A stretch of 64,000 bases of DNA, from the IMG/VR virus record IMGVR_UViG_3300031992_000025, positions 33,932 to 97,931 of that record. One strand, given 5' to 3'. The stretch's first letter is position 1, and the number at the start of each line of letters is the position of its first letter. Shown piece by piece: positions 26,532 to 54,032 of the stretch. Made by a program: the position numbers and the translations under genes. The notes below the pieces were generated by a model. The model saw only the letters and a program-made list of their open reading frames with translations, did no database searches and had not been told where the DNA came from. The DNA comes from a virus. Lineage: Duplodnaviria; Heunggongvirae; Uroviricota; Caudoviricetes.

Positions 26532-26576
26532 AAAATGCAAAATTTGCAAAAATGTTATACTAAAGGAGAAAAAGTT

Positions 26577-26657: not shown

Positions 26658-26690
26658 GATTATAAAGGACGTTAGTTAACGTAATATAAT

Positions 26691-26720
26691 GCCGAGTGGT
26701 TAAGCCGCCCGGCATTTTTT
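26691..26720 (+). terminator. rho-independent terminator
   Basis: GCCGAGTGG-TTAAG-CCGCCCGGC-ATTTTTT. Confidence 0.55.
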
Positions 26721-26863
26721 CTAGGATTACGTTAGCGCGACGGACAAGAATTACTTATGCGAATTCCTTCTTAGAAAAAAATCTCCTTGTCTTCTAATTG
26801 AATAAGATATAGACCTCCTAAGTCTATGATCAGAGTTTAAATCTCTGCAAGGAGTCCATATAT

Positions 26864-26938
26864 ACCGCCATAGTACAACGGATAGTACAGTAGCCTTCTA
26901 AGCTTCTGATCCGGGTTCGATTCCTGGTGGCGGTGCCA
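26864..26938 (+). tRNA. tRNA-Arg(TCT)
   Basis: anticodon loop CTTCTAA, acceptor ACCGCCA/TGGCGGT. Confidence 0.7.
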
Positions 26939-26940
26939 TT

Positions 26941-27010
26941 AGAGCCTATGCTTATTTCTAGCTCAACGAGAGCGTCAAACATTTAATTTGAAGGTATAGC
27001 TAGGCCAAAA
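26941..27010 (+). repeat. bipartite bulged-helix motif copy 9
   Basis: AGAGCCTATGCTTATTTCT ... TAGCTAGGCCAAAA (AC to GC paired by GT to GC change). Confidence 0.65.
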
Positions 27011-27014
27011 TTAT

Positions 27015-27092
27015 GCACCGTCGGTCGCAAGGTGTGACACTCGACTTTTAATCGAGGTATCAGGATGGGTTCGATTCCCTCACGGTGCACCA
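27015..27092 (+). tRNA. tRNA-Lys(TTT)
   Basis: anticodon stem CTCGA/TCGAG loop CTTTTAA. Confidence 0.75.
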
Positions 27093-27096
27093 ATAT

Positions 27097-27171
27097 GCAC
27101 CCTTAGCCAAGCGGTATGGCCTACGACTTTTAATCGTATTATCAGGTGTTCGACTCACCTAGGGTGTACCA
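27097..27171 (+). tRNA. tRNA-Lys(TTT), second copy
   Basis: anticodon stem TACGA/TCGTA loop CTTTTAA. Confidence 0.75.
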
Positions 27172-27174
27172 GTA

Positions 27175-27252
27175 TGCTCCGTTGGCGCAATTAGGTAGCG
27201 CAAGATACTCTTAATATCTGGGTTACAGGTTCGATTCCTGTACGGAGCACCA
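27175..27252 (+). tRNA. tRNA-Lys(CTT)
   Basis: anticodon stem AGATA/TATCT loop CTCTTAA. Confidence 0.8.
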
Positions 27253-27310
27253 ATAAAATATTTTGCATTTGACTTAAAATTATTTGCTAAATTAATTGAG
27301 GTTCAAAATT

Positions 27311-28123
27311 ATGGCAAATTATATAAGTCACACTGCTTGAAATAAAGGCTTAACCAAAGAAACCGATAGTCGTTTAGCAAAAACAGCTTTATTACAAAGT
27401 AAAGTTAAAAAAGGTAAACCAAATCATCCACAAACTGCTGAAACAAGAGCAAAAATATCAGCTGCTAGAAAAAAATACATAGCAGAGCATCCAGATCAAG
27501 TTCCATTTAAAATGCACCATTCATCTAAAGAAAGTTTTCCAGAAAGATATTTTAGACTTTGACTTAAAAAAGAAAAATTATTAGAAGCACAAGAACTACA
27601 GATTGATAGATATACATTAGATTTTGCTTGGCCAGATAAAAAGATTTATTTAGAAATTGATGGAAATCAGCATAAGTTAGATTGAATGCAAGAGCATGAT
27701 AAAATTAGAACTGATTATTTAAATACTTTAGGTTGAACATGTATTGGTAGAATAGATTGATCTTGATATAAAGCTTTGTGCACAAAAGAAAAGCATAAAT
27801 ATTTACAAAACATAAAAGCAGCAATTGAGCAAGCTAGTTTTATAGAAAAATTTATATCAAAAAAAGACTTAGCTTTACAAAAACGTCAAAAGCTTATTGA
27901 AGCTGGATTTGTTATGAAAGATGGCAGAACAGCTCCATGAATGTTATCTAATAATGAATGGCAAAGACGTTTACAGCTAATACTAGATAGTAATATAGAC
28001 TTAACAAAATTTGGCTGGAAAGAACAAGTACAAAAAATAACGAATTTAACTCGTAGCCAATTAAACGATACAATAGAGCATTTTCCAGAACATTTTACAA
28101 AAATCTATATTAGAGGCAAATAA
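27311..28123 (+). CDS. homing endonuclease-like protein: NUMOD3-type DNA-binding motifs plus DUF559/Vsr-like PD-(D/E)XK nuclease domain (about 10 in-frame TGA)
   Basis: HTAWNKGLTKETDSRLAKTA and KPNHPQTAETRAKISAARKK (NUMOD3-like); DFAWPDKKIYLEIDGNQH...LGWTCIGRIDW; TGA codons fall at conserved Trp-like positions (GW motif). Confidence 0.65.
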
Positions 28124-28205
28124 ATTATTGTATAATATATTGTGGTTGAGATATGAGTTTTGGTAGTTTTGTGCCACGCATGCGGAAATAAAAACTACTA
28201 TATAT

Positions 28206-28281
28206 GCCGACTTAGCTCAGCTGTTAGAGCAATTCACTAGTAATGAATAGGTCGGGGGTTAGAATCCCTCAGTCGGCACCA
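28206..28281 (+). tRNA. tRNA-Thr(AGT), A34
   Basis: anticodon stem ATTCA/TGAAT loop CTAGTAA, acceptor GCCGACT/AGTCGGC, T-loop TTAGAAT. Confidence 0.6.
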
Positions 28282-28283
28282 TC

Positions 28284-28400
28284 AGAGCCCATGCTTATTT
28301 CTTTCGGCTTGTAACCGGGTGGTCGTTGGTTCGAATCCAACTCGGCGCTGTATAGTGTCGATAGCTCAGCGGTAGAGCACCTTATTTAGCTGGGCCTTTT
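28284..28400 (+). repeat. bipartite bulged-helix motif copy 10 enclosing a permuted tRNA-Thr(TGT)-like gene
   Basis: AGAGCCCATGCTTATTTCT + anticodon arm TTCGG-CTTGTAA-CCGGG + T-arm GTTGG-TTCGAAT-CCAAC + acceptor 3' TCGGCGC-T + TGTATA + acceptor 5' GTGTCGA-TA-GCTC-AGCGGTA-GAGC + partner GCTGGGCC-TTTTT; acceptor strands pair 7/7 (two G-U). Confidence 0.65.
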
Positions 28401-29042: not shown

Positions 29043-29852
29043 TTGCTAAATTATATGATTATGAAGAATTTAGTTAAAACTGATTTTGATAAGACATATG
29101 ATGAATTAAGCAACTTATCTTTTATTATAAATGAAAAAGAAGATAGCTCAATAGACATTTTAGATGATATTACCTTAGAACAGTTTGGTCAGCCATATGA
29201 AAAATCAAGTATTCAATCCCTTAAAATAAAAAATACTTGTGGAATTTATTTAATTTTTAGAAAAGCAGAAGATGGTAGACTTCATAAATATATTGGGCAA
29301 GCAACTTCTCTACGTGACCGTTTATTGAAGCATCTTTCTAGGGCTGCATATATTATGGAGCATCCTAAGACAGATGAAAACAAAAATTTAGGCATTTATA
29401 AAGATTCGCCAGCTTTACATAGTGCTTTAATTAGACACAATTTTAAGGGGTTTTTCTTTGTTATATTAAAAATTTGTAAGCAAGAACAACTAAATGCATT
29501 AGAACAATTTGCTATTGCACAGTATGGCACTTTTGAAAATAAGTGAGATTATAATTTAACCCCTGGTGGCCAAGAAGGTGTAATTACTCATACAACTGCT
29601 GTTGAGCAATGAATTATAGAATATAAAAAAAGCACCAAAGGGCATGCTGCAGAAGTTAGATGAATTAATTGTAAAAATGTTTATCCAAGTGAAGCTGCTG
29701 CTTCTATTGCTGTTTGTGGTGAAAATAAGCATCAGCAAATAGCAAATGCATTAGCAACACCTGATGGTGAATTTTGACAAAATAAATCTGGTAAGAATAA
29801 ACAATGAGCTGGCTATGGTTGGAGACTACTAGACGAAGTTGCTAGCGAGTAG
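29043..29852 (+). CDS. GIY-YIG homing endonuclease (TGA-recoded C-terminal half)
   Basis: CGIYLIF...KYIGQATSLRDR (GIY-YIG), catalytic E in ALEQFAIAQYG; frame continues through about 6 TGA to TAG at 29850. Confidence 0.7.
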
Positions 29853-31228: not shown

Positions 31229-32800
31229 ATGGATGTAGGACAAATTATCGGAATAGTTGTTGGCGGAGTAGCATTACTTCTCTTAATCATCTTTTTTGCT
31301 TGTGCATATACAAAAGCAGGACCAGATGAAGCCATCATGATCTCTGGCGCAGGCAAGAGAAAAATTTTAAGAGGAAAAGCTGGCTGGAGATTGCCATTCT
31401 TACAAAGAAAAGATAAATTATCTCTAAAAGTGTTCCAAGTTGACATTAAGACTCGTGAATCAATTCCAACTAATGAATTTATTAATATTAATGTTGATGG
31501 TGTTGCGAACTTAAAAGTATCTAGTGATCCAGAATTACTTGAAAGAGCCTTTGAAGCTACACTTGGTATGGGCCAAGAGGACTTAATTGAACAAGTCAAG
31601 CAAGTTCTTGAGGGTAATATGCGTGAAATTATCGGTACTGTCGGTATTAGACAACTTGTTCAAGACCGTAAAGGTGTTGCTGAGGCTGTTAAGGAAAATG
31701 TTATTCCAGATATGAGTAAATTAGGCCTCGAATTAGTTAATTTTAATATTCAAAACTTCTCAGACAATAATCATGTCATTGAAAACTTAGGTATTGATAA
31801 TATTTCTCAAATCAGCAAAGAAGCTGCTATTGCTAAAGCAAATGCTGAAAGAGATGTTACTATTGCTCGTGCTGAAGCAGCAAAACAAGCTAATGAAGCT
31901 GAAGTTTTATCAAAAACTGCTATTGTTCAAAAGAACACAGAATATAGTCTTAAAGAGTCTGAATTAAAGATTAAAACAGATACAGCTAAAGCTGATGCTG
32001 ATGCTGCTTATAAAATTCAAGCTCAAAAGAGACAAGAAGAAATTAATACTGCTACAGTTAATGCTGAAATTTCTAAGAGAGAACGTGAAGTTGAACTTGG
32101 AAATAAAGAAGTTGAATTAGCAGAAAAGAAACTTGCTGCTACTGTTAATAAGAAAGCTGATGCAGATAAATATGCTGCAGAAAAAGAAGCTGAAGCAGAA
32201 TTATACAGACGTCAAAAGAAAGCTGAAGCTGAACTTATTGAAGCTCAAAGACAAGCTGAAAAACTTAAAGTTGCCGCTGAAGCTGAAAAACTTGCTCGTA
32301 AAGAAAAAGCTGATGCTGTTGCTATCGAAGCTGAAGCTCAAAGAGTTTCTCGTGCTAAAGCTGCTGAAGCTATTAAGTTAGAAGCTGAAGCTAATAAACA
32401 AGCCGCTCTTGCTGAAGCTGAAGGTATTAAAGCAAAAGGTGAAGCTGAAGCTACTGCAACTAAAGAAAAAGCAGAAGCTATGAAGGCATTCAATGATGCT
32501 GCTACATTAAAACTTGTTTTAGACAGCGGTGTCTTACCAGAGACTGTCAGAGCTTACTCTGAACCAATTGCTGCTGCATTAGGTCAAATTGATGGAATCA
32601 CTATGTATGGTTCTGGCAACGAAGCTAAACTTGTTGAGAACATTCAAAAGTCTGGTGATCAAATCTTTGAGGGCTTAAACAAAACATTAGGCATTGACCT
32701 TAAATCTGTTCTTCTTGGCTATCTTGGACCAAAAGTCTTAGGTGCTGTTGCTGAAACTCCAACTAAGAAAACAAAAGGCAAAACAGATTTAACTGAATAG
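31229..32800 (+). CDS. flotillin/SPFH (band 7) domain protein with long Ala/Glu/Lys coiled-coil
   Basis: N-terminal TM, SPFH core (KTRESIPTNEFININVDGVANLKV...), about 200-aa EA/KA-repeat coiled coil, flotillin-like C-terminus. Confidence 0.7.
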   Translation: MDVGQIIGIVVGGVALLLLIIFFACAYTKAGPDEAIMISGAGKRKILRGKAGWRLPFLQRKDKLSLKVFQVDIKTRESIPTNEFININVDGVANLKVSSDPELLERAFEATLGMGQEDLIEQVKQVLEGNMREIIGTVGIRQLVQDRKGVAEAVKENVIPDMSKLGLELVNFNIQNFSDNNHVIENLGIDNISQISKEAAIAKANAERDVTIARAEAAKQANEAEVLSKTAIVQKNTEYSLKESELKIKTDTAKADADAAYKIQAQKRQEEINTATVNAEISKREREVELGNKEVELAEKKLAATVNKKADADKYAAEKEAEAELYRRQKKAEAELIEAQRQAEKLKVAAEAEKLARKEKADAVAIEAEAQRVSRAKAAEAIKLEAEANKQAALAEAEGIKAKGEAEATATKEKAEAMKAFNDAATLKLVLDSGVLPETVRAYSEPIAAALGQIDGITMYGSGNEAKLVENIQKSGDQIFEGLNKTLGIDLKSVLLGYLGPKVLGAVAETPTKKTKGKTDLTE

Positions 32801-32850: not shown

Positions 32851-32864
32851 TTGTATAATATAAT
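32851..32864 (+). promoter_or_regulatory. extended -10 promoter TTGTATAATATAAT
   Basis: after terminator, upstream of Thg1-like gene. Confidence 0.55.
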
Positions 32865-32877
32865 GAGGTATTTTAAT

Positions 32878-33789
32878 ATGATTAGAGATGCATTAGGCGA
32901 TAGAATGAAAACTTATTATGAGGAAGTTACTAAGACTAGACTTACTCGTAGAACTCCAGTTGTTATTAGGCTAGATGGCTGTCATTTTCATACATTTACG
33001 AGAGGATTTAAAAAGCCATTCGATGAAGTTTTAGTTAAGTCTATGCAAGCAACCATGAAATATCTTTGTGAAAATATTCAAGGTTGTGTTTTAGGTTATA
33101 CTCAGTCTGATGAAATTACTCTTGTTTTAGTTGATTATAAAGAATTGAATACAAGCGCTTGGTTTGATTATGAAGTTCAAAAGATGGTTTCAGTTTCAGC
33201 CGCTCTTGCAACTTATGCTTTTAATAAATATTTTAATGAGTACTATTTAGAAAGTATTGCAGAAAAAGGCGAAGTTGATAAATATGATTTAGCTCATGAT
33301 ACCGCAAGAAGAAAAGGTGCATATTTTGATAGTAGAGTATTCAATATTCCAAAAGAAGAAGTTACTAATTGTGTTCTTTGGAGACAACTTGATGCAGAGA
33401 GAAATTCAATTAATTCATTAGCTCAATCTTTATTTAGCCACAAATCACTTCAAGGTTTAAATCTTAAAGATACGAAAGCTAAAATTGAAACTGAAGCTGG
33501 AATTATTTGGGGAAATTTACCAACAACTCAAAAACGTGGATGTTGCTGTATTAAAAACTATTATTTCTTAGACAAAGAAGGCAATAGATATGAAACAGCT
33601 AATATCTGTACATCAGAAGAAGATGGTACACATTATGTTGATGCCGGATTTAATGAAGAAAAGAATGTCTATGAACTTTATCCTATTGAAGTTACTCTTC
33701 ATAGTGAGTGGGTAGTAGATGAAGATATACCACAATTTAAAGATAGTGGTAGGAATTATATTGAAAACTTAGTTTTTGTTGGTGAATAA
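32878..33789 (+). CDS. Thg1-like protein (tRNA-His guanylyltransferase family 3'-5' nucleotidyltransferase)
   Basis: TPVVIRLDGCHFHTFTRGFKKPFDEVLVKSMQATMKYLCENIQGCVLGYTQSDEITLVL matches Thg1/TLP N-terminal catalytic core (RLDG.NFH.F....KP.D, GQSDE). Confidence 0.75.
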   Translation: MIRDALGDRMKTYYEEVTKTRLTRRTPVVIRLDGCHFHTFTRGFKKPFDEVLVKSMQATMKYLCENIQGCVLGYTQSDEITLVLVDYKELNTSAWFDYEVQKMVSVSAALATYAFNKYFNEYYLESIAEKGEVDKYDLAHDTARRKGAYFDSRVFNIPKEEVTNCVLWRQLDAERNSINSLAQSLFSHKSLQGLNLKDTKAKIETEAGIIWGNLPTTQKRGCCCIKNYYFLDKEGNRYETANICTSEEDGTHYVDAGFNEEKNVYELYPIEVTLHSEWVVDEDIPQFKDSGRNYIENLVFVGE

Positions 33790-38429: not shown

Positions 38430-38795
38430 ATGTTAGAATGGATCGAATCTGCAAATCAAATCGTTGTATTAGTTACTAGTTTAGTTGGTTTAATTGGTAC
38501 AGGTGTTGGAGCATTTTTTGCTATTAAAGGTTGGGTTAAAGCCTTTAAAGAAAAAGATGCAAAACAAAAATGGGCAACTATTATGGAAATTGCTGATGCT
38601 GCAATTAAAGAGGCTGAAAAGTCTGGCAAGTCAGGAGCAGATAAAAAAGAAATGGTTGTCAATTCAGTCAAAGCAAGCTGTAAAGCAGCGGGTATTGATG
38701 TAGATACATTTATTGACCAATTATTAGAATATATTGATCAAACAATTGCATTTGTCAATGACATGTCTAAAAAGACAAAAGTAGCTAAAAAATAA
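38430..38795 (+). CDS. membrane protein, holin-like
   Basis: N-terminal TM helix, Lys-rich tail; followed by terminator. Confidence 0.4.
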   Translation: MLEWIESANQIVVLVTSLVGLIGTGVGAFFAIKGWVKAFKEKDAKQKWATIMEIADAAIKEAEKSGKSGADKKEMVVNSVKASCKAAGIDVDTFIDQLLEYIDQTIAFVNDMSKKTKVAKK

Positions 38796-38814
38796 AGAAA
38801 AATATTAGTAAATA

Positions 38815-38847
38815 AAAAAGACTTGTATTATTACAGGTCTTTTTATT
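38815..38847 (+). terminator. rho-independent terminator
   Basis: AAAAAAGACTTGTATTATTACAGGTCTTTTTATTT. Confidence 0.6.
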
Positions 38848-38860
38848 TATTACAATTAAA

Positions 38861-40091: not shown

Positions 40092-43000
40092 ATGTCAGAG
40101 CTTTACACAAAAACCGTATGGATAAACAATAGAACAAAGCTTAGTGCCAAAAACATGAACCATATTGAAGATGGTCTTGAAAGAGTGGCAGAAGCAGTAG
40201 AAGAAATAGAAGAAAGTGGAGTTTCACATACTCACAGAAATAAAGCTATTTTAGACCAAATAACTGCACCATTTACTACTGTATTAGAAAATAAATACGA
40301 TAGTTATGCAAATAAATCAACTGTCACTGTAAGTAAATCAGGTGAGTCTGAAGTTAGTGTTCAATATATTACAATTGATGGTGTTGAATACAAACTTGCT
40401 GGTGATATTGCAGAAAATTACGAAGAAAAATATGATGTTTCTTTAAATACAATTACTGAAACAGGCGTTTATAAAATTATTGATGCTAGAGATGTTCCAG
40501 AAGGAACTTCTACATCTGGTATTTTAAATGCAACAAAGTTATCAAATGGACAAACAGCTCAAGATTGGTTATCAACAACTAATCGTGCTGTTAGAATTTT
40601 TGATGAAAGTGCTATTGGTTTAAAATTCTATGTTAATGATGAATTAGTTTCACAAGGTGAAGTATTATTACCAGCTGGCGGGACTTATGAATTACAAGGT
40701 GATTTATTAGGTCATATTATAATTGGTGAAAGTGAAGCAGCTGTTAATAATCGTACAAAAATTATTCTTAATGGTGTTAATATTCAATCTTATGATTATG
40801 ATTCATGTATTGAATACACTCCAATTGATAGTAAGGTTGTCATTGAAGTTGCTGATAATTCTAAAAACTATATTGTTGTTGGAACAGATGGTGAAAAAGA
40901 CGATGATGATTTAGGCGCTATTCATTCTGAGAATAATTTAGTTTTAACAGGTGTTGGTTATTTAACAGTTATTAATACTAAAGGCCATGGCATTAAAGCT
41001 TCTGAATTAGTTATTACTGGTAACCCATATGTTTACTTACGTACAAATCATGATGCTGTTCATGGCGGTAAATTATTAAAGATTGCTGGTGGTTATTTTG
41101 AAGTTGATGGAGCTAATGATGCATTTAGTGGTTCAGCTGGTTCATCTGATAATGGCAGAGTATTAATTCTTGGTGGTACTTATGTAATTAATGCTTGTAA
41201 TGAAGCAGCATTTGAAGGCAAGTCTGCCAATGGTATTAAGAGAGTTTTAAATGCTAACATTACATTTGGCGCTGGTGTTAATAAATTATTTAATGCAAGC
41301 AATGCAAATGAAGGTTTTGAATTTAAAGTATTTGAAGGTTTAAATACAATTGTTAATAATTCTGGTAAAGCAGATCCTACAACTGTAAGTCTAAAGACAC
41401 TTGTTGGTCCAGCTAGATTAACTATTGGAACTGGCGTAGAAGCTACTGTTATTCCAACAGACGAAGCTGAAGTTGTAATTGCACCAGTTGAAGATACTGA
41501 ATATGTTGCAAGCGGTGACTGGACAGGCAAAAAACTTATTTCAAATCCAGCTGCAGGTATTAAAGTTGATATTGTTTTAGAAGATTTCTATCATGAGCCT
41601 ACTGAATTACAAGATGGTTTTGAACCAGCACCATTTATTCAACATAATGGCGATAAACGTATTAAATTCTCAGTTGATGAATTTAAATTAGCTTATATTG
41701 CACATGAAGGAGCAGCTGCCATTTTAACTTCAAAAAATATTCAAGTTAAAGGCAAAGGCGACTTATTTATTAAATGTACTAATGGTGAGGCTATTACTGC
41801 CCCAAATGGCTACACTGTTTTAGGTGGAGACGGTATTAGAAATATTACAAATTGTGCTTCTGGTATTACAACAGCTAGTTTACGTTTAGGGGAAGACCCA
41901 GATGATGTTGATGAAAAATTTGATTCAACTCCAAGCAAACGTGGGGTAAGTGAAACAGCTATTTATATTATTAATAATGCTAGTAATGAACAAAATAAAG
42001 ATATTACGCTTACTACTACTGAACAATTAATTACATATGAAAATCAAGTTATTGCTACTCAATATATGACAGGTGCAGCAATTTTAGGTAATATTGTAAG
42101 AGCTGATTATGAAAGTTTATTAGTTGTTCAATCTGGTGAAGTTTTGCAAAAAACAGGAAATTCATATACTAATACTGCATTAGTCTATGTACAAACTGCT
42201 TTAATTGACATTGAAGGCGATGCCCATGTTTATGAAGAGCCATCTATTGAAGAATTAGATACAGAAGCTCCTGATATTGAAAGTTCAGCTAGCGCTTCTT
42301 GGGTTGTATACCACGGTGATGGCTACTCTAAAGAAGATGCAGATGAGAAATTTGTTGCTAAATCAACATATAATGCATTAGTTAATGATTTAGATGCTCG
42401 TGCACCAAGAAAAATTGATATTATCAATTTCTTAGCTGATGACGACGGAATTCCATTAAAGCCAAAGACAAAAGATCCTCATCCTGGCACATATGCTGAT
42501 GGTAAAATTGATGCAATTGAAATTTTTAGATATGCATGTCCAGAACAAATTGATATTGATAGCACTATTGACCAAAATGGTGATCCAGTACTAGAGCCAG
42601 AAACACATAGCAGCTACATGAAAGATGGCCGTCAAATTTATGCTAGAGACGGTGATTCTGGTTATCCAGAAATTGATGGAACAGGCCAATTTAATTTTAG
42701 GCCAGTTTGAAATACAGAGGGTTATGTTTTAACTCCAATTGTCACAGATTTTTCTGGTAAACCACATGATGGTAATGAAAAACTTCCAGATAAATCTCCA
42801 AATCCAAATTATAATAAATGTTATAATAAATTTAAAACACCTTGGTTAACAGGTATTCCAGGAGTTCATAGATTCACAAAAGTTTGTAAAGACATTAAAA
42901 TTGATTTTGAAGCTGTTGAGGAAGCAAGTTTACCAAGAAATACAATTACTTGGAATATAGTTGCGCCAGATGGTTATTTAGAAACTAATATTCCGTCAGT

Positions 43001-43811
43001 TAGAATTTTTAGATGTGAAGATCAAGCTGAAAAATATTTTAAATATTATTTAGGTGAAGATACATATCTTGGTACATTATCTGAAGACCTTATTTCTGGT
43101 GAAGCTTTATCATTTATAAAACAAGAAACTGAAGCTGGCGAAGACCAAGTTTGGGAAACAACTGGTATTACTTATAATAATGATACTGGTTATCCAGAGA
43201 AAAATGGTGGTAGTATTGTTTTCTTGCTTGGAAATCTTGATAAATTACCAGAAGGCTATACTGTTACAGCTTTTACTGATGGGCCAGCTATAAGTGATGG
43301 TAGTTATGGTCATACAAAGTTTGTTGAAAAAATTAATGATAATATTACAATTACTATTAAAGTTGCCCCACCAGTTAATATTAGTTATGATGATCAAGGC
43401 AATACATTAACATATATTGATAAAGGTAAGACAAAAGTAGCTTATGGCTTCTCAGACGGGGATAATCAGGAATCAGCAGCTCAAGGGTCAAATATTGTAT
43501 TTACAATATTCCATAGTGAAACTGATACTGCACATGGCGGCTATGGTTGGACCGAGGGTACAAAAGATCCAATTACACAAATTAAGCCAATTTATAAACT
43601 CGATGGAACTCAACCAACTGTAGAAGATGTATATCCATATATTGCTTCAGTTACAGTCGGTGAAGTAGTCTATACTCCAGCAGATGCTATTATAGCAACT
43701 AATTGAAAAGCTAAGAAGGTTGAAATTACACTTAATGCTGCTATTGTAACAGATGATATTATAATTAAGCTTGCTGCAAGACCTGGTGAAAGAAATTGGC
43801 CAGCTGAATAG
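40092..43811 (+). CDS. giant structural protein (1239 aa, tail fibre/tailspike-like), TGA-recoded
   Basis: frame continuous 40092-43811 across TGA at 42708 and 43704; RBS AAGGAGATAATAT-ATG; Gly/Asn/Thr-rich beta-rich composition. Confidence 0.55.
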
Positions 43812-43829: not shown

Positions 43830-44606
43830 ATGAGAATTAGAAATGTAATTGATCACATTAATACAAAGCAAGATATAATTAGTGATTTAGCTACAATTAG
43901 AGCTGGTGCAGAAGCAGGAGCTTCTGCAGTTCAGCCAGCAGCTATTTCTGATATGGCTACTCAAACTTGGGTTGGCCAGCAAGGATTTGCAGCAGAAACA
44001 GACTTAGGTAGTAATTTATTTACAGTCGCTGATGGATTTACCGTAGATATGCAACATTGCTATCAAATTGGACCATTAGTTTTTATCCATATAGTATTTC
44101 ATAAGAATGCTGCACCATCAGCTGCTTCTATTCTTAAAATTGGCACATTCTCAATTCACCCACAACATGACCATGCTTTCCCAGCGACTGCATATAATGC
44201 AAGCGCTTCAACTACATCTAAAAAATTATTAGATAGTCGTGGTGTTTTAGAAACAAATGGCGATATTTGGTGTTATTTTATTTCAGATTCAACAAGTAAT
44301 GCAATTTATGATATTGAATTCTTCTTCTGTGCAAATGATAATGATCAAGATGGTAGTAATATCTTTGATATTGGTCAAGCAGTTGATATTACTATTAATT
44401 ATAATGCAAATGGTGGCGAAGGAACAATGGAATCAACTATTGCAATATCTCCAACTGCAGCTGCATGTACATTCACAGCACCTAGCGGTATGCAATTTGT
44501 AGAGTGGAATACTGCAGCAGATGGCTCTGGTGATACATATGCTGTTGGCGATTCTATTGAAGCAGACTTAACACTTTATGCAATTTGGGAAGAAGCTAGC
44601 GTCTAA
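43830..44606 (+). CDS. structural protein with C-terminal Listeria-Bacteroides repeat (Flg_new-like) domain
   Basis: ITINYNANGGEGTMESTIAISPTAAACTFTAPSGMQFVEWNTAADGSGDTYAVGDSIEADLTLYAIW. Confidence 0.5.
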   Translation: MRIRNVIDHINTKQDIISDLATIRAGAEAGASAVQPAAISDMATQTWVGQQGFAAETDLGSNLFTVADGFTVDMQHCYQIGPLVFIHIVFHKNAAPSAASILKIGTFSIHPQHDHAFPATAYNASASTTSKKLLDSRGVLETNGDIWCYFISDSTSNAIYDIEFFFCANDNDQDGSNIFDIGQAVDITINYNANGGEGTMESTIAISPTAAACTFTAPSGMQFVEWNTAADGSGDTYAVGDSIEADLTLYAIWEEASV

Positions 44607-44644
44607 ACTATAAAATATAATATAAAATTAATATAATCAATATA

Positions 44645-44677
44645 AAAAAGGCATCTTTAATAAGATGTCTTTTTATT
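44645..44677 (+). terminator. rho-independent terminator
   Basis: AAAAAGGCATCTTTAATAAGATGTCTTTTTATT. Confidence 0.65.
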
Positions 44678-44692
44678 ATTTAAAGCTTATTA

Positions 44693-44733: not shown

Positions 44734-45096
44734 ATGGCATTAAATAATATTGTAGTAATTAATCGTGGTGATACATTTTCATTTGATTTGACAATCGATG
44801 ACTGTGCGTCTCCAAATGGAAGATATATTTTAAAAGACGATGATGTGTTATATTTTGGTATTATGGATCCACATCAACTTTTTGAGAATGCTCTAGTTAA
44901 AAAAAGATATACAAAAGAAGACTGCGATGATGAAGGTAATTTACTTATTGTAATTAGACCAGAAGATACTCTAGATTTATATCCTGGAGTATATTATTAT
45001 GCTGTAAAACTTCATAAATTAACTGATAATGAGACTGAATATGTAGATGAAGTTGTTACTGTAATAAATAAAACAAAATTTATTATTAATGACTAG
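44734..45096 (+). CDS. hypothetical virion-module protein
   Basis: RBS AAAGGAGATTCATT-ATG. Confidence 0.45.
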   Translation: MALNNIVVINRGDTFSFDLTIDDCASPNGRYILKDDDVLYFGIMDPHQLFENALVKKRYTKEDCDDEGNLLIVIRPEDTLDLYPGVYYYAVKLHKLTDNETEYVDEVVTVINKTKFIIND

Positions 45097-45110
45097 GAGG
45101 AGACTGATTA

Positions 45111-48100
45111 ATGGTTGGTAAAATAAATAAAAATTCAACATCTATTAGTGGCTCAATAAATGCTCCAACTCCTAGTACTGGCACTGTTTCAAGGCTTGGT
45201 GGCGGAACTGCAGACCATACAAAGTTATTAAATAGAAATGCTCCAAATCAGCATAATATTGCTGCAATTACTGGTTTACAAGATCTATTAGACAGTAAAC
45301 TTGATTCTGAAACTGCTTTACCTTTAATTGAGGATGCTACTAATAATAAAGCACGTGGCTTATTTTATGACATACACTGTGAAATTGCTGAAAAACCATA
45401 CTGATATTTAACCTCTGAAATTGATGAGGAAACTGGACAAGGGACTCTTGATTCAATTATTTCTGGACCATATGACCTCGGCCAAGGCGGAGGCGGTGGC
45501 GGAGGCGGTGGTGGTGTCACTGACGTCACGCTTAATATCGCAATTGATCCAGAGACTGGTGAACGTATGTGGCCAACATACGTAGCTATTGGTAGCGCAT
45601 GTACTATTGGTGTTACTTGGTCATCTACAAGAGATGGCGAGTCTACTGGCCGTGGCACATTATATGTATATGTTAATGATAAATTAGTTGAAACAAAAGC
45701 AACTCAACAAGGTATTGTTACATTTGAAATTGGTGATTACTTAACTTCAGGTGAAAATAAGATTGAAATTAGAGCAATAGATGCTTATTCTACAAGTAAG
45801 AATTTTATTAGCTCTATTTCAGGTATTACATTAAAGTTACAGTCTAACTTTGAAGATGATATCAGTTATACTGGTGATGTTACTTTCACATATATCCCAA
45901 CAGGTAATATTAGAAAACTTGTATATTTTATTGTTGACGGCGTTCAATTTGGTGCTCCTGAAGTTGTTACTACTTCTGGTGAACAATGAACAAAAATTAT
46001 TCCACAGTCACTTTTAACTCATGGTTCACATACATTAGAAGTTTACTTTACTTGCGAACTAGATGGTGAAACAGTTAGATCTAATGAATTATACTATGAT
46101 TTAATTTGTTATGAACCTGGAAACACTACCCCAATTATTGCTTCTACCTTTAAAGATAGTGCCCCGCAAGAGCAATATGTTTCATTTACAGTTAGATACA
46201 GAGTTTTTACTCCAAATAAAAATGACTCAATTGTTTATTTAATTTCAGACGGAACTTCTTCAAGCCCATTAACTATTGACCAAAGATATCATTTGTGGGA
46301 ATGCCGCTTTGATATTCCAGGTAACCATACTTTAATTATTAGAACTGGTCGTGTTTCTAAGATTTTTAATGTTAAAGTTGTCGAGAGCACCGTTCATGTT
46401 GAACCAGTTACACAATCATTAGCACTTGAATTAAGTTCATATGGCCGCTCAAATTCAGTTCCATTAGAAGAGCGTTCCCAATGGAATTATAATGATATTA
46501 CAAGTACTTTAACTGGCTTTAACTGAGTTTCAAATGGTTGGGTACTTGATGATGATGGTAATACTGCTTTACGTCTTTCTGGTGATGCTCGTGTTACTAT
46601 TAACTATAAGCCATTTGAGACTGACTTTACTTCAACAGGTAAAACTTTTGAATTTGAAATTGCTACATCAGATGTTAAAGATTATGAAACTAAAATCTTT
46701 GAATGTCTTGATGGTGCTGATACAATTACTTATTCAACAAGATATGCTGGTGAAGATACTCGTACTAAAAAGTTTGCAGTTGAGTCTATTGACTTAGAGA
46801 TGTTTACTACTAAGGTTTTAGGCTCTAAAGGAACATATGTCTTTATTTATGATGGGCATAACTGAGATTTAGACGGACTTTTAGTTACACAAGAAGCTCT
46901 TAGAGATGAATATGGTATTACATTAGAAGAAGTTGATTTAGACCCAACAGTAATTGAACCAAGCCATTATGTGATTGAAGATAAAATTACTGTTTATTAT
47001 ACCGTTGCTGGTCACGGCTTCTATATTACTCCTCAATTAGCAAAACTTCAGTCTAATCAATCGTCACTTTCAACACAATATAAAGAAGGTGAAAAAGTTA
47101 GACTTGCTTTCGTTGTTGAAAATCGTAATGATGGCTCAGAAACATTTAAGACAAGATTACTTTATATGTATATTAATGGTATTTTGTCAGGTGTTTCTAG
47201 ATATCCAGAAGGCGATAGTTTCCAACAAACTCCAGCAAGTAAAGTTGCTAATATTACAATTGGTAGTAATGATGCTACTGTTGATGTTTATACAATTCGT
47301 ATTTATAATAGTAATTTAACAAGAAAGCAAATTGTTCAAAACTGAATTGCTGATACTAGAAACCCAGTATTAAAAGCACAAAGATATAAACATAATGATA
47401 ATTACAACGATGAAAATAAAATTTCATTAGATAAAGTTAAACTTCTTGGTAATCTTCCATATATGATTTTACGTGGAGAAAAATTACCAGCATATAAAAA
47501 AGATAGAAAATATATTGAAGTTGAGTATAGAAATCCATCTGATCCAGATAGAGACTTTACTGCTACACAAGCAAGAGCTGACGTTCAAGGTACTTCTTCT
47601 CAATACTACTATAGAAAGAATTTTAAAATTAAGTTTGAAGGTGGTTTTGAAGATAATAATGGAAACTGGACAGAGCATTATAAAATGCGTGGCGATGATT
47701 CAAAGAAAGAAAAAACTTATACATTCAAAGCTGACGTTGCTTCTTCAGAAGGTGCAAATAACGTTGAATTAGTAAGATATTTTGAAGACACCAAAAACTG
47801 GTACTCACCAGCTGAGCAGGAACCAGATACTGACTTAAACACTGCTGATAGTAAATTACGTATTCGTGTTGGTATTGATGGTTTCCCAATTGTTATGTTC
47901 CATGATGCTGGAGATAATAAGCCAGTTTTCTATGGTAAAATGAACTTTAACAATGATAAAGGAAATGAAAGAACTTTTGGTTTTAAAGAAGGCGACGAAT
48001 GTTGGGAATTTGTTAACAACTCATCTCCACTTGTCTTATTTAAAACTGATGATTTAACTGATTGGCAAAGTTCTTGGGAGTCTAGATATCCAGAAGAATA

Positions 48101-51100
48101 TGGCGATGATGCACATGCTTATGGAACAGGACCGGGAGAATTAACTAAATTACAACAAGTTGTATCCTGGATTGTCTCTACTAGACGTGATACTGCAACT
48201 GGAAACCCATTACCAACTCGTAAATCATTTGATGGCGGTGTAACATATTATACTCATGATACTGAAGAATATCGTTTAGCTAAGTTTAAAGGTGAATTAT
48301 CTCAATACTTTGATAAAACATCATCATTATTCTATTACTTATACACAGAGTTATTCTTAATGGTTGACTCTCGTGCAAAAAACGCAATGCTTGCTTACTT
48401 AAAGAGCAGACAACCTGGTGATGGTGGTAATAAATGATTCTGAATGCCATACGATATGGACACTGCGTTAGGTATTAACAACGAAGGTCTATTAGTTTTC
48501 AGCTACGATAAAGAAGATACAGATTTACAAGAAGGCGCTAATATTTATAATGGACAAGCATCTATTTTCTGGAACAATCTAAGAGATGCATTTGGTCCAG
48601 AATTAAAACAAATGTATGCTGACCTTCGTACTGATAAGGGACAAGGTAAACCTTATTGGAGCTACGATAATATTGAAAAATACTTTGAAGACCATCAAGC
48701 TGTTTGGTCTGAAGCAATTTTTAATGAAGATGCTTATACAAAATATTTAGAGCCTTATATAAATGATAAAGATGCTACTTACTTAGGTATGGCACAAGGT
48801 TCAAAAGAGCAACAAAGAAAATGGTGAATGTATAATAGATTTAAATATCTAGATTCTAAATATCTAACTGGTGATGCATTAAAAGATACTATTATGTTCC
48901 GTGCATATGTTCCAGTAGGCCCAAAACCAAATATTACTGTTACTCCATACCAAAATATGTATGCTGCAGCACTATTTAGAAATGGTGATACTGTTACGCC
49001 AGTCAGAGCTTCAAAAGGCACACCAGTTACATTAGTAAATACAGTTGAATATGAAGCAACAGAAACAGACCAAGAAACAATTATTTATTCTGCTTCTCAA
49101 TTAAAAGATATTGGTGATCTTTCCGTATTTAAGCCAGGATATGCAGACTTTTCAAAAGCAACTAAACTACAAAGATTACAAATTGGTAGTTCAAATCCTT
49201 CATATGAAAATCCAAACCTTAAAGGAATTAACGTTGGTGCTAACCACTTATTAACTTACTTAGATGCTAGACACTGTAAAAACTTAGGTGTTGGTGAGGG
49301 TGCTGATGTTACCCCAACCATTGACTTATCTCAATGTTATAGTATTGAAGAAGCTTATTTTGATGATACTCAAATTAAAGCAGTCAGCTTCCCTGTTGGT
49401 GGAAACTTAAAGAGAGTTCACTTACCAGAAACAATTACAAGCTTAACAATTAGAAACCATCCTAACTTAGAAGAGCTTGTTTTAGGCGGTACAGCTAATC
49501 TTTCATCTATTTGGTTAGAAGATATCCCATCAACAACAATTAATGCTGTTGATATTATTTCACAAATGCCTGATGGCTCAACTGTTAGATTAATGAATAT
49601 TAATAATACAATTAATACTGTTGGTGAAGTTGAAGCTTTCTATGCAAAGCTTGCTAGAATGCAAGGTAGAGATGGTAAAGGCGACCCAACTCCAAAAGCA
49701 CAAATTACTGGTGTTATTCATGTTCCTCAAACAGTTAACTTCCCATATGCTATTTGGAAACGCTTATCTGAACAATTTGATGAAGTTACAATTGATGCAA
49801 AGGTTGTTTGTACAGTTAACTTCTGGAATGAGGGTGTTTTACATGAATCAAAACTCGCTGTTTTAGGTGGTCCTGCACAAACTCCATCAATTCCAGTAAA
49901 AGCATCTACACAACAATACTATTATACATTTGCAGCATGGGATCAAGCATATGACGAAGTATTTGAAGATTTAGATATTAATGCTACTTTTGACCCACAT
50001 ATTCAACATTATACAATTAAATTTAGAACCGGTTCAAATCTTATTCATGCTATTCCTGCTGAAGTCGATTTAGAGTATGGTGCATTAATTCCAGAGCCAA
50101 CACTTGATTATGGAACTGTTGACGAGACCACTATTAGATTCTTAGGTTGGTATACAGCGAATAATGACCAAGTAGACTTCACTACAAAAACTGTTTCAGG
50201 AAATATTATTAGGTTCCCAGAAACAATGGAAATTGTTATTTCTGCAAGATGGCAAGATATGAATGCACCATTAGTAGAAAGAATAACAGTACTTGCTTAT
50301 AATAAATTTAGATTCGAACTATCAGATAACTTAGGTGTTACAGGATATGCTATTACTAACTCTGCAGAAGCTCCAGCTTTTGAGGACTCTGCTTGGGTTA
50401 ATTTGCCTGAACCACTTACCTACTACTCAAACGAATATACTGTTCGTCATGCTGGTGAATACTATGTCCATGTTAAAGATGACACAAGCAGTTCATTTGA
50501 AAAAGTTACTGCTTATGCAATTTCATTAACACAAAATATTAATAATGAGGAATATGACACCTCAGAAAATATTGTTCAATTAGCTCTTACTGAAAATGAT
50601 GAGCCGGTTAATGCTAGCTTTGCTTTACAGACTACTACATTAGTAGTTGCTACAGATTTAGATGAACACTATGAGTCATTATCATTATATTGTAATGATG
50701 TATTTGTTGATACTGGTACATCACTTTATGTAGCAGAAGACCTCAACTTTGTAGCAACATGCTATCCAAAACATTATATGGTAACATTTGATGTTGGAGA
50801 CCATGGTTCAAATGTAGATAGCCAAGAAATTATATATAAGCATTTTGCAATTGAGCCTACCCCACAAGTTGATGGTAGTATGATTCTTGATAACTGGTCT
50901 TATGAAGATAATATTTGGGTCTTTAATTCATATGCTGTTTTAGGCGATATGGAATTAGTTGCTAACTGGGTTAACTATACAGGTTCAACTGATATTCAAC
51001 TAGACTTACCAGTAGGAAATTTATTCCCATCAGAAGGCATTGAAGTGTCTATTCATATTTATCAGTCAGTTGGTAGAGCTGTTCAGATTCGTTGAGAGGG

Positions 51101-52484
51101 TGATAGTACTGACCCGAGCAATATAAGCAGACTTAATGTTGAAGGTGATACTACATTTACTCATAGATATATGACTGGTGGCGGCCACGCAGTTAAGATT
51201 TCAAGATTAGCTGGTGATTTTATTCTTGGAAAGAGCTATGACTATCCTTTAGTTGAACCAATTGAGTATGTTTCTGATATTACTTTTGGTTATGATATTG
51301 CTGCAACTAAAGAAGGACTTTTAAGAGGTGCTATAAATTTATATGATATTAAATTAAATAGATTTATGGTAACATTGGCCTCTAGTATGTTTGAGGGCTG
51401 CACTAATATTAGACATGTTATTATTGCAGGTGAAAATAGCTTAGGTGAGTTAGACCTTTCTCAAACAGACATGATACCAGAATCAGTTAGATTTATTGGC
51501 GATAATGTATTTAAAGGTTGTACTGCACTTGTGAATATTAGAATGCCTGAAAGATTAGCCTCTTTGGGTACTAACGTATTTGCTGATTGTACTGGTCTTC
51601 AAACAGTTACTTTCTCAGATAATTCTACTCTTAGTACATTACCTAATAATACATTCTCTGGTTGCTCAGATTTAATTAGTGTTCATATTCCAAATAGTAT
51701 TACTACAGTTGGTGAATATGCTTTTAATGGTTGTTCGTCATTAGCTAATATTGTCCTTGGTCCAAATGTTGTAAGAATTGGTGCTTCTGCATTTGCTGAT
51801 TGTACAATATTAAATGACGTAGCAATAAGAGCAACATCAATGGAATCAATGGGCTTAAATATTTTCTACAACTGTCCAAATCTTCAAGATGCTGGACCAA
51901 TTGGTGGTGATTATGATATTAAATTTGGTTGACAAACAGCTATCCCAGCAAATGCATTTGGTGTATCATATACTGGTGCTTCTGCATTATTAGCAATTGA
52001 CCTACCAAATACTATTACTTCAATCGGAGACAGAGCTTTCTACAGATGTACTAGATTACAGGCAGTTAATTCAAATAATATCTTACCAAGAAGTTTAATA
52101 TATATTGGTGATGAAAGTTTTAGATATTGTTTTGAACTATTAGGTATTGATATTCCAGCTTCAACAACTTATATCGGTGCAAGTGCATTTGACTCTTGCC
52201 GTGGTTTAAGGACTATTTATATTAGATGTCCAAATAGTACATATAAAGTTACAGCAACTACTGGAGCATGGTTTGCTCAAGTAAGTTTAAGTATATTTGA
52301 TCCATCAGCTGAAGAATGAGGTGGAGAATTAATTCACATTCCATCAGCTCTCTCTGATACTGACCCAGAAAAACAGACACCAAGTGAAGCTTATGGTGAA
52401 TTCTGGAATTGGCACAGCCAAGAAATAGACTCAGAAACTGGAACAATTACAACATATACACTTGGCTATGAATGTAATCTTTAA
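45111..52484 (+). CDS. giant ORF (2458 aa if all about 10 TGA are sense): tail fibre/adhesin-like with poly-Gly linker, BspA-type leucine-rich repeats and Flg_new-like repeats
   Basis: single frame free of TAA/TAG for 7.37 kb in an AT-rich genome; RBS AGGAGGAGACTGATTA-ATG; GGGGGGGGGG at about 45480; LRR_5-like repeats 51.3-52.3 kb; HYMVTFDVGDHGS...LVANW repeat. Confidence 0.5.
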
Positions 52485-53390: not shown

Positions 53391-54032
53391 ATGAGAAAAA
53401 TAGAAGTACTCCAATTAAAACGTGGAACAAAAGCTAAGCTAACTGAACGCCTTTGTGGTGATTTTAGACCAAAAGATGGCGAACCAATTTGAGAAGAAGA
53501 TACTGGTAAGCTTAAATTTGGTGATGGTATTCATGACTATGGCGAGTTAGAATATTTTAATACTACTGATTTCGTTGTTGAAGGTGCTCTTGATGGCCAT
53601 ACACTTATTTATAATGAATCAGTTGGTCGTTGGGAATCTAGAAAATTTGTTGATGGAAAAAGTATTGATTTTGATGAAAATGGTTTGAAAATTGCAGGTT
53701 TTTCTGGTGAACAGGGCACAACACCAGTTGTTAATAATGGTGGATTAAACTGGCAACAAGCAGTTACTCAACAAACATTAAATGCTGCTGTTAGCCAAGC
53801 TCAAAATTATGCTTATGATTCAAGTCAATCAGCAACTCAAGCTGGAGCATCAGCTAACCAAGCTGGTAATGCTGCAGCACAAGCAGAGCAATTTAGAGAT
53901 GCAACTGCTGCTTTAATTAATAGTAAATTCTGGTTTGGCACTCGTGAAGAGTATGAAACACAGATTTTAAGTCAAGGAAAATTAACAGAAGGAACAATCT
54001 ATTTCATTAGAGATTATGATTGAACATTATAG
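53391..54032 (+). CDS. tail-fibre-like protein with Gln/Ala-rich segment (TGA-recoded)
   Basis: ATG overlapping previous stop; frame continuous through TGA at about 53490 and 54021. Confidence 0.45.

Follow-up and report, generated by a model that had tools for sequence, protein, structure and literature searches.

The reading frame that spans positions 45111-52484 of the window (the whole stretch of viral DNA that was analysed, 64,000 nucleotides) very probably encodes a single phage structural protein of 2,457 residues, a code-4 gene product with TGA read as tryptophan, which most likely serves as a tail fibre or as a receptor-binding adhesin. The frame runs on the + strand through 2,457 sense codons to a TAA at 52482, and contains 11 in-frame TGA codons and no TAA or TAG, whereas TAA and TAG together occur 114 and 196 times in the two remaining + frames of this segment. 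From base composition, the probability of finding neither codon in 2,457 triplets is ~1e-62. The gene starts with an ATG preceded, at 8 nt, by a strong Shine-Dalgarno sequence which overlaps the TAG stop of the upstream gene. Among the codons that follow the internal TGAs, only one is ATG (48828, directly behind the TGA at 48825), and no terminator-like site was found on the + strand inside the gene. An identical 2,457-residue protein (P0001) is already recorded on 4 contigs from three sources, so the gene is not an assembly artefact. The features of the gene and its surroundings are collected in the table.

Features of the giant gene and its neighbourhood (positions in the window; aa, residues of the 2,457-aa protein)
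Feature	Position (nt)	Strand	Remarks
Holin (Phage_holin_6_1), 6 kb upstream, no in-frame TGA	38430..38795	+	Pfam 32.3 bits, cut-off 24.9
1,239-aa fibre-like protein with Cthe_2159 beta-helix carbohydrate-binding domain, 2 in-frame TGA	40092..43811	+	
258-aa protein, C-terminal Flg_new	43830..44606	+	Pfam 33 bits, cut-off 27
Intrinsic-terminator-like hairpin, 5' of the gene pair 44734-45096 / 45111-52484	44645..44674	+	
Shine-Dalgarno sequence AGGAGGAG	45095..45102	+	read directly from the sequence
Gene of 2,457 aa, probable tail fibre/adhesin, 11 TGA as Trp, TAA end	45111..52484	+	
In-frame TGA codons	45402, 45987, 46524, 46863, 47343, 48435, 48441, 48825, 51093, 51930, 52317	+	aa 98, 293, 472, 585, 745, 1109, 1111, 1239, 1995, 2274, 2403
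N-terminal conserved domain, aa 1-125, motif DHxxLxNRxxxxQHxIxAIxxL	45111..45485	+	invariant columns in alignment A1
Gly10 hinge, aa 126-135	45486..45515	+	mixed GGN codons
Beta-rich region, aa 136-455, probably Ig-like	45516..46475	+	weak Pfam matches
ConA/laminin-G-like region, aa ~470-750	46518..47360	+	putative fold
CotH-kinase-like core, aa 752-1292	47364..48986	+	Pfam CotH at aa 1055-1169 (nt 48273-48617)
Internal LRR-like block, aa ~1330-1500	49098..49610	+	putative; L/N pattern conserved in A1
Flg_new-like (Listeria-Bacteroides repeat) module, aa 1634-1699	50010..50207	+	sub-threshold Pfam
BspA-type LRRs, ~12 repeats, aa ~2075-2385	51333..52265	+	LRR_5; repeats counted by hand
Mtd_N (major tropism determinant N-terminal) protein	53391..54032	+	Pfam 26.7 bits, cut-off 26.3; gene call taken from the public contig

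The N-terminal domain, which contains the invariant, TGA-encoded W98, gave no Pfam match over residues 1-125 and is presumed to serve in virion attachment. It is followed by a run of ten glycines, which the original prediction had recognised but placed at 45481-45510; in relatives its place is taken by a stretch rich in Gly/Ser whose length varies. The beta-rich region shows weak Pfam matches to TcaA_3rd_4th (18.1 bits) and Big_13 (15 bits), and the ConA-like region, with TGA-encoded W472, W585 and W745, matches Laminin_G_3 at 15.3 bits, under the cut-off. A match to PHROG 24896 covers residues 647-960 (E = 3.5e-68).

The CotH-kinase-like core (residues ~780-1290) is by sequence the most conserved part of the protein, and it had been overlooked in the original prediction. 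CotH was not listed in the whole-protein Pfam scan; with residues 752-1292 scanned alone, PF08757 scored 28 bits (cut-off 23.8), and the domain was matched in 11 of 12 family members. Two invariant motifs are found in the core, DSRAKN (1086-1091) and W-x-W-x-PYDMDT (1109-1118), and three of its tryptophans, W1109, W1111 and W1239, are encoded by TGA. The invariant D1086/N1091 and D1115/D1117 lie inside the Pfam-matched stretch (in B. subtilis CotH the catalytic and the metal-binding Asp are D228 and D251, respectively; PMC7821199). In a Foldseek search of the PDB the B. cereus CotH kinase (5jd9) was the sole significant match (E = 4.4e-5, probability 1.00, TM-scores 0.27/0.36), obtained with a low-confidence model (pLDDT 54.8). 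The sequence similarity of the core to the CotH kinase is too low for any PDB sequence match, and profile searches against PDB sequences gave none. Whereas CotH is a spore-coat enzyme, the domain is found here inside a 2,457-residue virion-type protein.

The internal LRR block matches LRR_4 at 16.3 bits, under the cut-off. The Flg_new-like module (PF09479) reached 23.3 and 22.3 bits where the cut-off is 27, so the Flg_new repeats of the original prediction stay sub-threshold in this protein when checked with the domain profile; most full-length homologues, however, have precomputed PF09479 matches, and the module is probably real but divergent. Similar modules with a GW motif occur at residues ~1566-1630 and 1889-1953. 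The BspA-type repeats, in contrast, are well supported by LRR_5 (173 bits, E = 3e-51 for the whole protein; 190.6 bits in four stretches for residues 1990-2457; cut-off 27.7), as anticipated, with the number of repeats reduced by hand counting from about 15 to ~12. Profile searches matched these C-terminal ~310 residues, which include the TGA-encoded W2274, to the BspA-type surface proteins 4fs7 (E = 1.1e-67), 4gt6, 4h09, PcpA (4cp6) and TpLRR (6mlx), with E values from 1e-67 to 6e-29. The array, which belongs to bacterial surface adhesins in the BspA-type proteins and forms the C-terminal module of a phage protein here, is presumed to be a distal binding surface.

The protein belongs to a very large family that has been catalogued before and whose core is found in more than 2,300 cluster representatives, and the exact protein is already present in public collections. 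The literature calls the giant CotH-core phage proteins unstudied. The closest annotated phage homologue is XTK82179 of NatCom_3357 (Ca. Heliusvirales), a hypothetical protein of 1,673 residues with 37-43% identity over residues 158-1698 of the window protein; its gene lies behind those for the tape-measure protein and Dit, and ahead of holin and endolysin. In contrast to the window protein, it is encoded in the standard code by a 47.6-kb phage, is shorter, and does not have the long LRR_5 C-terminus. Hankyphage p00 (BK010646, 2,245 residues) is homologous at residues 181-1574 with ~25% identity; the homology takes in the beta domains and ConA-like region as well as the CotH-like core and internal LRR, and p00, too, is one giant ORF within the tail module. 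This phage uses the standard code, and its p00, described as a DGR-diversified 'putative tail fiber', ends in a C-type lectin with a reverse transcriptase nearby, whereas the C-terminus of the window protein consists of BspA LRRs and a search of 38-64 kb gave no TR/VR repeat. Bacillus phage G gp353, an uncharacterised protein of a jumbo phage, shows ~26% identity at residues 635-1467 (ConA-like region and CotH-like core); the match is shorter, the code is standard and the host is a Bacillus.

The giant gene sits in a tail-fibre/host-recognition and lysis module. Its neighbours bear Cthe_2159, Flg_new, Mtd_N and CBM_4_9 domains; the Cthe_2159 match of the 40092-43811 product has E = 1.1e-25, and the N-terminus of that product weakly matches PHROG 2012 'minor tail protein'. 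No terminase was found in the window. The giant gene does not show the features of a DGR target: no TR/VR-type direct repeats of 40 nt or longer occur in 38000-64000, there is no reverse transcriptase among the scanned neighbours of the giant gene, and the C-terminus is LRR_5, not C-type lectin. The source phage is large (contig of at least 146 kb) and has many tRNA genes (38 in the window).

The genomic position and the homology to fibres annotated as 'putative' make a tail fibre or receptor-binding adhesin the most likely role, and the 'receptor-binding apparatus' of the original prediction gains support from the same position and from the Hankyphage putative tail fibre. In such a fibre, the conserved N-terminal domain would anchor the protein to the virion and the Gly10 hinge would give flexibility; the Ig-like and ConA-like beta domains with the CotH-kinase-like core may form the shaft or body, and the Flg_new-like modules with the ~12 BspA-type LRRs the distal binding surface. 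We infer both the virion location and the receptor binding. It is also conceivable, though unlikely, that the single protein has a role other than that of a receptor-binding fibre: an adhesin for mucus or glycans that decorates the capsid or tail, or an effector that is delivered and acts, through its CotH-like kinase, on proteins of the host or the virion. Such a role would fit the fact that the CotH-like core, with its invariant Asp/Asn motifs, is the most conserved part; host manipulation has been proposed for CotH-like DGR targets (Roux et al.), and mucus adherence for the Hankyphage protein (Benler et al.). Against it stand the location of the gene among fibre-like genes, the place of the NatCom_3357 homologue after tape-measure and Dit, the DGR-diversified C-terminus of the Hankyphage homologue, and the swapping, within the family, of the binding modules at the C-terminus (LRR_5, C-type lectin, DUF6273), the last two being typical of receptor-binding proteins.

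In respect to the 11 TGA codons, comparison with relatives identifies them as tryptophan codons of genetic code 4. Among 120 database homologues and the NatCom_3357 and Hankyphage proteins, Trp is the consensus at 9 of the 11 sites; the other two, 293 and 2403, fall in variable columns and are uninformative on the amino acid. Six sites (W98, W585, W745, W1109, W1111 and W1239) are invariant Trp columns in alignment A1. The standard-code homologues have W opposite the TGA at residues 745, 1109 and 1239 (NatCom_3357) and at 472 and 1109 (Hankyphage), with F opposite the TGA at 472 and 1239 among the two. Orthologous codons alternate between TGA and TGG in relatives: the window gene has 11 TGA and 28 TGG, P0002 has 24 and 18, P0009 has 3 and 39, and P0047 has 0 and 44, the last (2,377 residues) being a full-length ORF under the standard code. 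PHROG 14959 (residues 963-1571) and Pfam CotH (1055-1169) run across TGA sites. One NatCom_3357 CDS covers residues 158-1698 of the query, and one Hankyphage p00 feature (entered as misc_feature) covers 181-1574. The placement of TGA on Trp columns, its exchange with TGG, the profiles and homologous CDSs that run across the sites, and a strong Shine-Dalgarno sequence with ATG at the 5' end bear out the first of the two alternatives in the original prediction, a single-frame protein in which every TGA is sense.

The use of TGA differs between the late and the early genes of the window. In-frame TGA is present in 10 of 15 late ORFs and in 4 of 28 early ones, and TGA does not serve as a stop (41 ORFs close with TAA and 14 with TAG). 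The late ORFs contain 78 TGG and 31 TGA and the early ones 98 TGG and 3 TGA, the early count being made without three TGA-rich ORFs of the 27-30 kb endonuclease region (Fisher P = 3e-7). The split is strong but not absolute, because four early-region ORFs hold TGA: PhoH, two endonuclease-like ORFs and one small ORF. In-frame TGA aligned with Trp, gene ends in TAA/TAG, TGA mostly in structural/lysis-module genes and homing-endonuclease ORFs, standard-code close relatives and large tRNA-rich genomes are likewise described for code-4 phages of gut and rumen such as the Agate and Jade clades (Borges et al., 10.1101/2021.08.26.457843). Unlike some of these phages, the 64 kb of the window contain no tRNA(UCA), RF1 or TrpRS. 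None of the 38 tRNAs has the anticodon UCA, and a permissive Rfam scan that included sub-threshold matches gave none either. The phage tRNA-Trp(CCA) shows a normal anticodon stem of 5 bp and pairs U11 with G24, and at matched sites in other viral contigs (10 sites matched) the tRNA-Trp anticodon is CCA in 8 of 8 cases. Suppressor tRNAs are present in 35% of code-4 genomes and are not obligatory (Borges et al.). The expectation that the gene would be a readout of TGA decoding is borne out only at the level of the amino acid, Trp; no decoding agent was found in the window, whose 64 kb make up under half of a contig of at least 146 kb.

A cell with the unmodified standard code would end translation of the giant gene after 97 residues; therefore the full-length protein would be made only once TGA suppression is active, which would amount to late-gene gating, the model published for TGA-recoded gut phages. 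We infer this timing role of TGA. It would lose its basis if the host itself used code 4 (Mycoplasma-like) and TGA were an ordinary Trp codon, with no phage-driven switch; this is very unlikely. The window without suppressor tRNA, RF1 or TrpRS and the TGA codons in the early-region PhoH and endonuclease-like ORFs would agree with such a host, but 24 of 28 early ORFs avoid TGA, relatives of the protein occur in Bacteroides phages and Clostridia records, and the same gene holds 0 to 24 TGA in close relatives, as a recent recoding on a standard-code background predicts.

Readings in which TGA is not tryptophan deserve almost no credence. With TGA as a stop, table 11 splits the frame into up to 12 fragments (ORFs of 97-755 residues), which would be a string of short co-framed genes or a decayed pseudogene, and the lack of a suppressor tRNA in the window would be in line with this; yet the interruptions are exclusively TGA, the 75-444 nt gaps between the ORFs are in-frame conserved coding sequence, domains and homologous CDSs cross the stops, more than 80 homologues are full length, TGA lies on invariant Trp columns, and its exchange for TGG in relatives effectively refutes this reading. 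The alternative of at least eight co-framed genes in the original prediction was rejected on the same Trp alignment, TGA/TGG exchange and domain continuity. Glycine (code 25) would be expected in a phage of Absconditabacteria or Gracilibacteria; code-25 phages do exist (Borges et al., 10.1101/2021.08.26.457843), and the DNA is AT-rich, but W, F or Y stand opposite TGA, no site has G in more than 2 of 121 sequences, and most early genes avoid TGA, unlike in phages fully adapted to a code-25 host.

With TGA as tryptophan, the giant gene offers a clean example of stop-codon recoding, six of its 11 TGA codons standing at invariant tryptophans, and the range of 0 to 24 TGA in the same gene of relatives shows how fast a single late gene can take up TGA for Trp. 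The product, being large and probably part of the virion, lends itself well to a mass-spectrometric proof that TGA is decoded as Trp; such validation was given for TAG-to-Gln and did not cover code 4 (PMC9523058). For annotation, calling genes in code 11 splits this one gene into up to 12 pieces. The CotH-kinase-like domain emerges as the core that is conserved throughout more than 2,300 clusters of giant phage proteins, whose distal binding modules are exchangeable (BspA LRR, C-type lectin/DGR, others). It is quite unlikely, with evidence pointing neither way, that TGA is decoded without a conventional suppressor tRNA (by a non-canonical decoder or modified host translation machinery), or that the CotH-like core is an active kinase at the phage-host interface; either of the two, non-canonical TGA decoding or an active CotH-like fibre kinase, would, if true, be new biology.

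The frame at window positions 45111-52484 (+ strand) comprises 2,457 codons followed by TAA, and the 11 stops inside it are all TGA, which confirms the original prediction of a single frame interrupted by this codon only. The closest in-frame TAA or TAG on the 5' side is found at 45087, the remaining two + frames of the interval contain 114 and 196 TAA/TAG codons, and the probability of 2,457 codons without either triplet, calculated from base composition, is ~1e-62. The sequence AGGAGGAG is located 8 nt upstream of the ATG at 45111. Read with table 11 (standard code), the frame falls into pieces, separated by in-frame stretches of 75-444 nt free of start codons. No terminator-like sites were found on the + strand inside the gene. 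The two terminator-like hairpins of the late region (see table) are 76% identical (ATAAAAAAG...CTTTTTAT) and are probably transcript ends within it; a promoter scan returned as many sites as expected from shuffled sequence. Four contigs (JGI, ENA, Logan) already carry the identical 2,457-aa sequence, recorded as a single protein, which rules out an assembly chimera.

The identity of the residue inserted at TGA was derived from relatives. In protein alignments with homologues read in the standard code, tryptophan stands opposite the TGA sites at 745, 1109 and 1239 in the NatCom_3357 protein and at 472 and 1109 in the Hankyphage p00 protein, with phenylalanine opposite sites 472 and 1239. Over 120 database homologues together with these two, tryptophan is the consensus residue at 9 of the 11 positions, with next to no glycine; in an alignment of 26 sequences (full-length relatives), W98, W585, W745, W1109, W1111 and W1239 are invariant. 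A codon alignment with the DNA of three homologues (P0002, P0009, P0047) gives evidence independent of the databases' own translations. TGA and TGG occur 11 and 28 times in the window gene, 24 and 18 in P0002, 3 and 39 in P0009, and 0 and 44 in P0047, a 2,377-aa protein (39% identical) translatable in the standard code. The same columns hold TGA in some of the four genes and TGG in others; the interchange settles that TGA encodes tryptophan and that the frame is a single gene. The share of TGA in the window protein is about equal at invariant tryptophan columns (6/21) and over all tryptophan codons (11/39), thus it behaves as a plain synonymous codon. The preferred reading of the original prediction, one protein with TGA as sense, is supported by both the tryptophan columns and the codon swaps. 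Selenocysteine, glycine or cysteine at TGA is ruled out by W, F or Y in the alignments, and the glycine reading deserves practically no credence. A string of separate genes or a pseudogene is just as implausible, given that all stops are TGA, the sequence is conserved, and TGA and TGG exchange at the same columns.

Features of the giant gene, its surroundings and the window
Feature	Position	Strand	Remarks
In-frame TGA of giant gene	aa 98, 293, 472, 585, 745, 1109, 1111, 1239, 1995, 2274, 2403	+	from translation
N-terminus	aa 1-125		conserved in family; no Pfam match
Gly10 tract	45486-45515	+	right after N-terminal domain
Beta-rich region	aa 136-750		weak Ig-like and Laminin_G_3 matches
CotH-like core	aa ~780-1290		best-conserved part of protein
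LRR-like block	aa ~1330-1500		after CotH-like core
Flg_new-like modules	after LRR-like block		23.3 bits, Pfam cut-off 27
Further beta-rich sequence	between Flg_new-like modules and C-terminal LRRs
BspA-type LRRs, ~12	C-terminus		LRR_5 173-190.6 bits; PDB 4fs7 E = 1e-67
Terminator-like hairpin	38812-38852	+	after holin gene
Intrinsic-terminator-like hairpin	44642-44682 (hairpin 44645-44674)	+	upstream of gene pair 44734-45096 / 45111-52484; 3' of gene 43830-44606
Holin	6 kb upstream		neighbour
Cthe_2159 beta-helix protein, 1,239 aa			neighbour; weak minor-tail-protein N-terminus
Flg_new protein, 258 aa			neighbour
Mtd_N protein			neighbour
1,057-aa protein			neighbour; no family match
Fibre-like protein with CBM_4_9, 799 aa	57960-60359	+	neighbour; 4 in-frame TGA
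Early region	1-37.6 kb		28 ORFs, 4 with in-frame TGA; TGG 102, TGA 18
Late region	37.8-62.3 kb		15 ORFs, 10 with in-frame TGA; TGG 78, TGA 31
PhoH-like gene	7886-8797		early, in-frame TGA
DUF559 (Vsr-like endonuclease)	27311-28123	+	early; 34.2 bits; 7 TGA in 270 aa
Weak GIY-YIG-like ORF	29055-29852	+	early; 18.9 bits, below cut-off; 5 TGA in 265 aa
Small ORF	within 1-37.6 kb		early, in-frame TGA
tRNA genes (38, two arrays)	10158-28281	+	no tRNA-His, no suppressor
Y-RNA-like elements	26244-26378; 28284-28398	+	within tRNA arrays
Kinase-phosphatase-T4 RNA ligase 1 fusion	2250-4406		near tRNA arrays
SPFH/flotillin protein	31229-32800		near tRNA arrays
Thg1-like guanylyltransferase	32863-33789		near tRNA arrays

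The predicted Gly10 run is real, although it lies 5 nt from the position first assigned; at this place the relatives carry a Gly/Ser-rich hinge of variable length. BspA-type repeats are likewise present, numbering ~12 instead of the proposed 15, while the Flg_new modules score below threshold. The CotH-like core is an addition to the domains listed originally. Scanned alone, it matches Pfam CotH with 28 bits (threshold 23.8), and 11 of 12 family members match this model. The AlphaFold model of the core, built from a 12-sequence alignment, is of low confidence (pLDDT 54.8); the only significant PDB neighbour of this poor model is the B. cereus CotH kinase 5jd9 (E = 4.4e-5), followed mainly by PI3-kinases, none significant, and only the top match was used. 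Profile searches of the core against PDB sequences returned nothing, even at E = 10. The invariant motifs DSRAKN (1086-1091) and PYDMDT (1113-1118) both fall inside the Pfam CotH-matched stretch of this predicted domain; in this stretch CotH would be expected to have its catalytic and its metal-binding aspartate, numbered D228 and D251 in the B. subtilis protein (PMC7821199).

Among annotated phages, NatCom_3357 (Ca. Heliusvirales) supplies the best match, a hypothetical protein of 1,673 aa, flanked on one side by tape-measure, Dit and two other genes and on the other by holin and endolysin. The second is the 2,245-aa DGR target of Hankyphage (~25% identity over 1,400 aa), described in recent work as a 'putative tail fibre' and shown there to be actively diversified; in contrast, the window gene has no associated DGR, and no TR/VR repeats were found in 38-64 kb. 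Bacillus phage G gp353 is also among the matches, and no nucleotide-level relatives were found among annotated phages. With aa 455-1300 as query, an exhaustive search gave 2,328 representatives of clusters with E <= 1e-3, of which 1,072 reach E <= 1e-30; the listed ones are mostly 1,500-2,900 aa long. Fusions of CotH-family kinase domains to hypervariable C-type lectins in phages have already been noted and called 'currently unstudied' (PMC8008677; Roux et al.). Both this protein family and code-4 recoding (TGA as tryptophan) of late phage genes are already known.

Window ORFs of >=100 aa, called with TAA and TAG as the only stops, show an uneven use of TGA. Without the endonuclease region's three TGA-rich ORFs at 27-30 kb, the early region has 3 TGA and 98 TGG against 31 and 78 in the late region (Fisher P = 3e-7). 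The two endonuclease-like ORFs adjoining the tRNA arrays are the densest in TGA of the whole window and parallel the TGA-enriched homing endonuclease of Agate phages. The distribution is the same as in the code-4 phages of Borges et al. (10.1101/2021.08.26.457843): structural and lysis modules, along with a homing endonuclease, accumulate TGA there, close relatives keep to the standard code, and just 35% of the genomes had a detected suppressor tRNA. The model of these authors has the early genes translated with the standard code of the host, and late genes become translatable only after TGA suppression is set up.

No tRNA(UCA) was found among the 38 tRNAs of the window by ARAGORN or by Rfam at gathering and permissive thresholds, and the phage tRNA-Trp(CCA) looks ordinary, having neither a 4-bp anticodon stem nor a Hirsh-type A24. 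An anticodon-wildcard search for tRNA-Trp-like genes in relatives matched 10 sites and gave no UCA variant; all 8 called tRNA-Trp by ARAGORN carry CCA. Relatives fetched via the Thg1-like gene are nearly tRNA-free nearby (11 tRNAs in 80 loci), the 40-mer at the window end is not matched exactly by any viral or metagenome contig, and no viral contig has a relative of ORF 15255-15845. As the contig measures at least 146 kb and the window covers under half of it, the missing decoder is a gap and not a contradiction. A host that natively uses code 4 would be another source of decoding, but this is improbable. Viral contigs in IMG/VR contain 468 relatives of the Thg1-like protein; the contigs listed are mostly 100-270 kb long, which places the phage in an extensive, well-sampled clade of large phages.

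A34 occurs in the anticodons of several tRNAs (aga, aag, agc, agt, acg), and the genes near the arrays (RNA ligase fusion, Thg1-like, PhoH, SPFH/flotillin) have an RNA-repair or tRNA-processing flavour. The tRNA at 14114-14187 (+; 49 bits in Rfam) shows an A1-C72 mismatch and an abnormal anticodon arm, with the stem CAGAU/AUCUG, a loop of 4-6 nt with core AUUA and a 2-nt 'anticodon' according to ARAGORN; it is not a UCA suppressor. The two Y-RNA-like elements look like circularly permuted tRNAs: a closing outer stem comes first, then a helix resembling an anticodon stem, a perfect T arm (GGTTCGAATCC), a stem of acceptor type capped by a short loop (with ACCA in element 26244-26378), and finally a D arm. 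The upstream motif TGCTTATTTCT is common to both; they score 38.1 and 33.5 bits against Rfam YrlA (threshold 69) and are not called by ARAGORN, and a Pfam scan of 23 window ORFs gave no Ro/TROVE protein. In a standard-code relative encoding a homologue with no TGA (locus L005, contig TONG22-1_SAMN15870996_METAG-scaffold_7), the tRNA array contains a GOLLD-RNA-like element at 5607-6006 (84.5 bits, gathering threshold 150, E = 3e-21), and GOLLD has no match in the window.

The neighbours of the giant gene form a host-recognition module, in a gene order common to relatives. The C-terminal end of the 799-aa neighbour (aa 734-798) matches Ribosomal_L12 (L7/L12 C-terminal domain; 40.2 bits, cut-off 25.9), which is odd for a tail-module protein. 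The domain content of the giant protein, its family membership and its position in the fibre module are established. Its putative role is that of a virion tail fibre or adhesin, in which the N-terminal domain would anchor the protein, the glycine hinge would allow it to swing, and the distal Flg_new-like and BspA-LRR modules would bind a host surface structure. One protein that acts instead as a decorating adhesin or a delivered kinase, and not as a receptor-binding fibre, is unlikely, but it is the strongest of the alternatives. For the tail fibre or adhesin, the 11 TGA codons would block translation until TGA is decoded as tryptophan by the phage or, with lower probability, by the host; as each must be suppressed in turn, the yield of complete protein is a steep function of how efficient suppression is.

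A published validation (PMC9523058) concerns code 15 only and includes no proteomic proof of TGA-to-tryptophan decoding. The main value of the giant protein is practical, as an excellent target for such proof.
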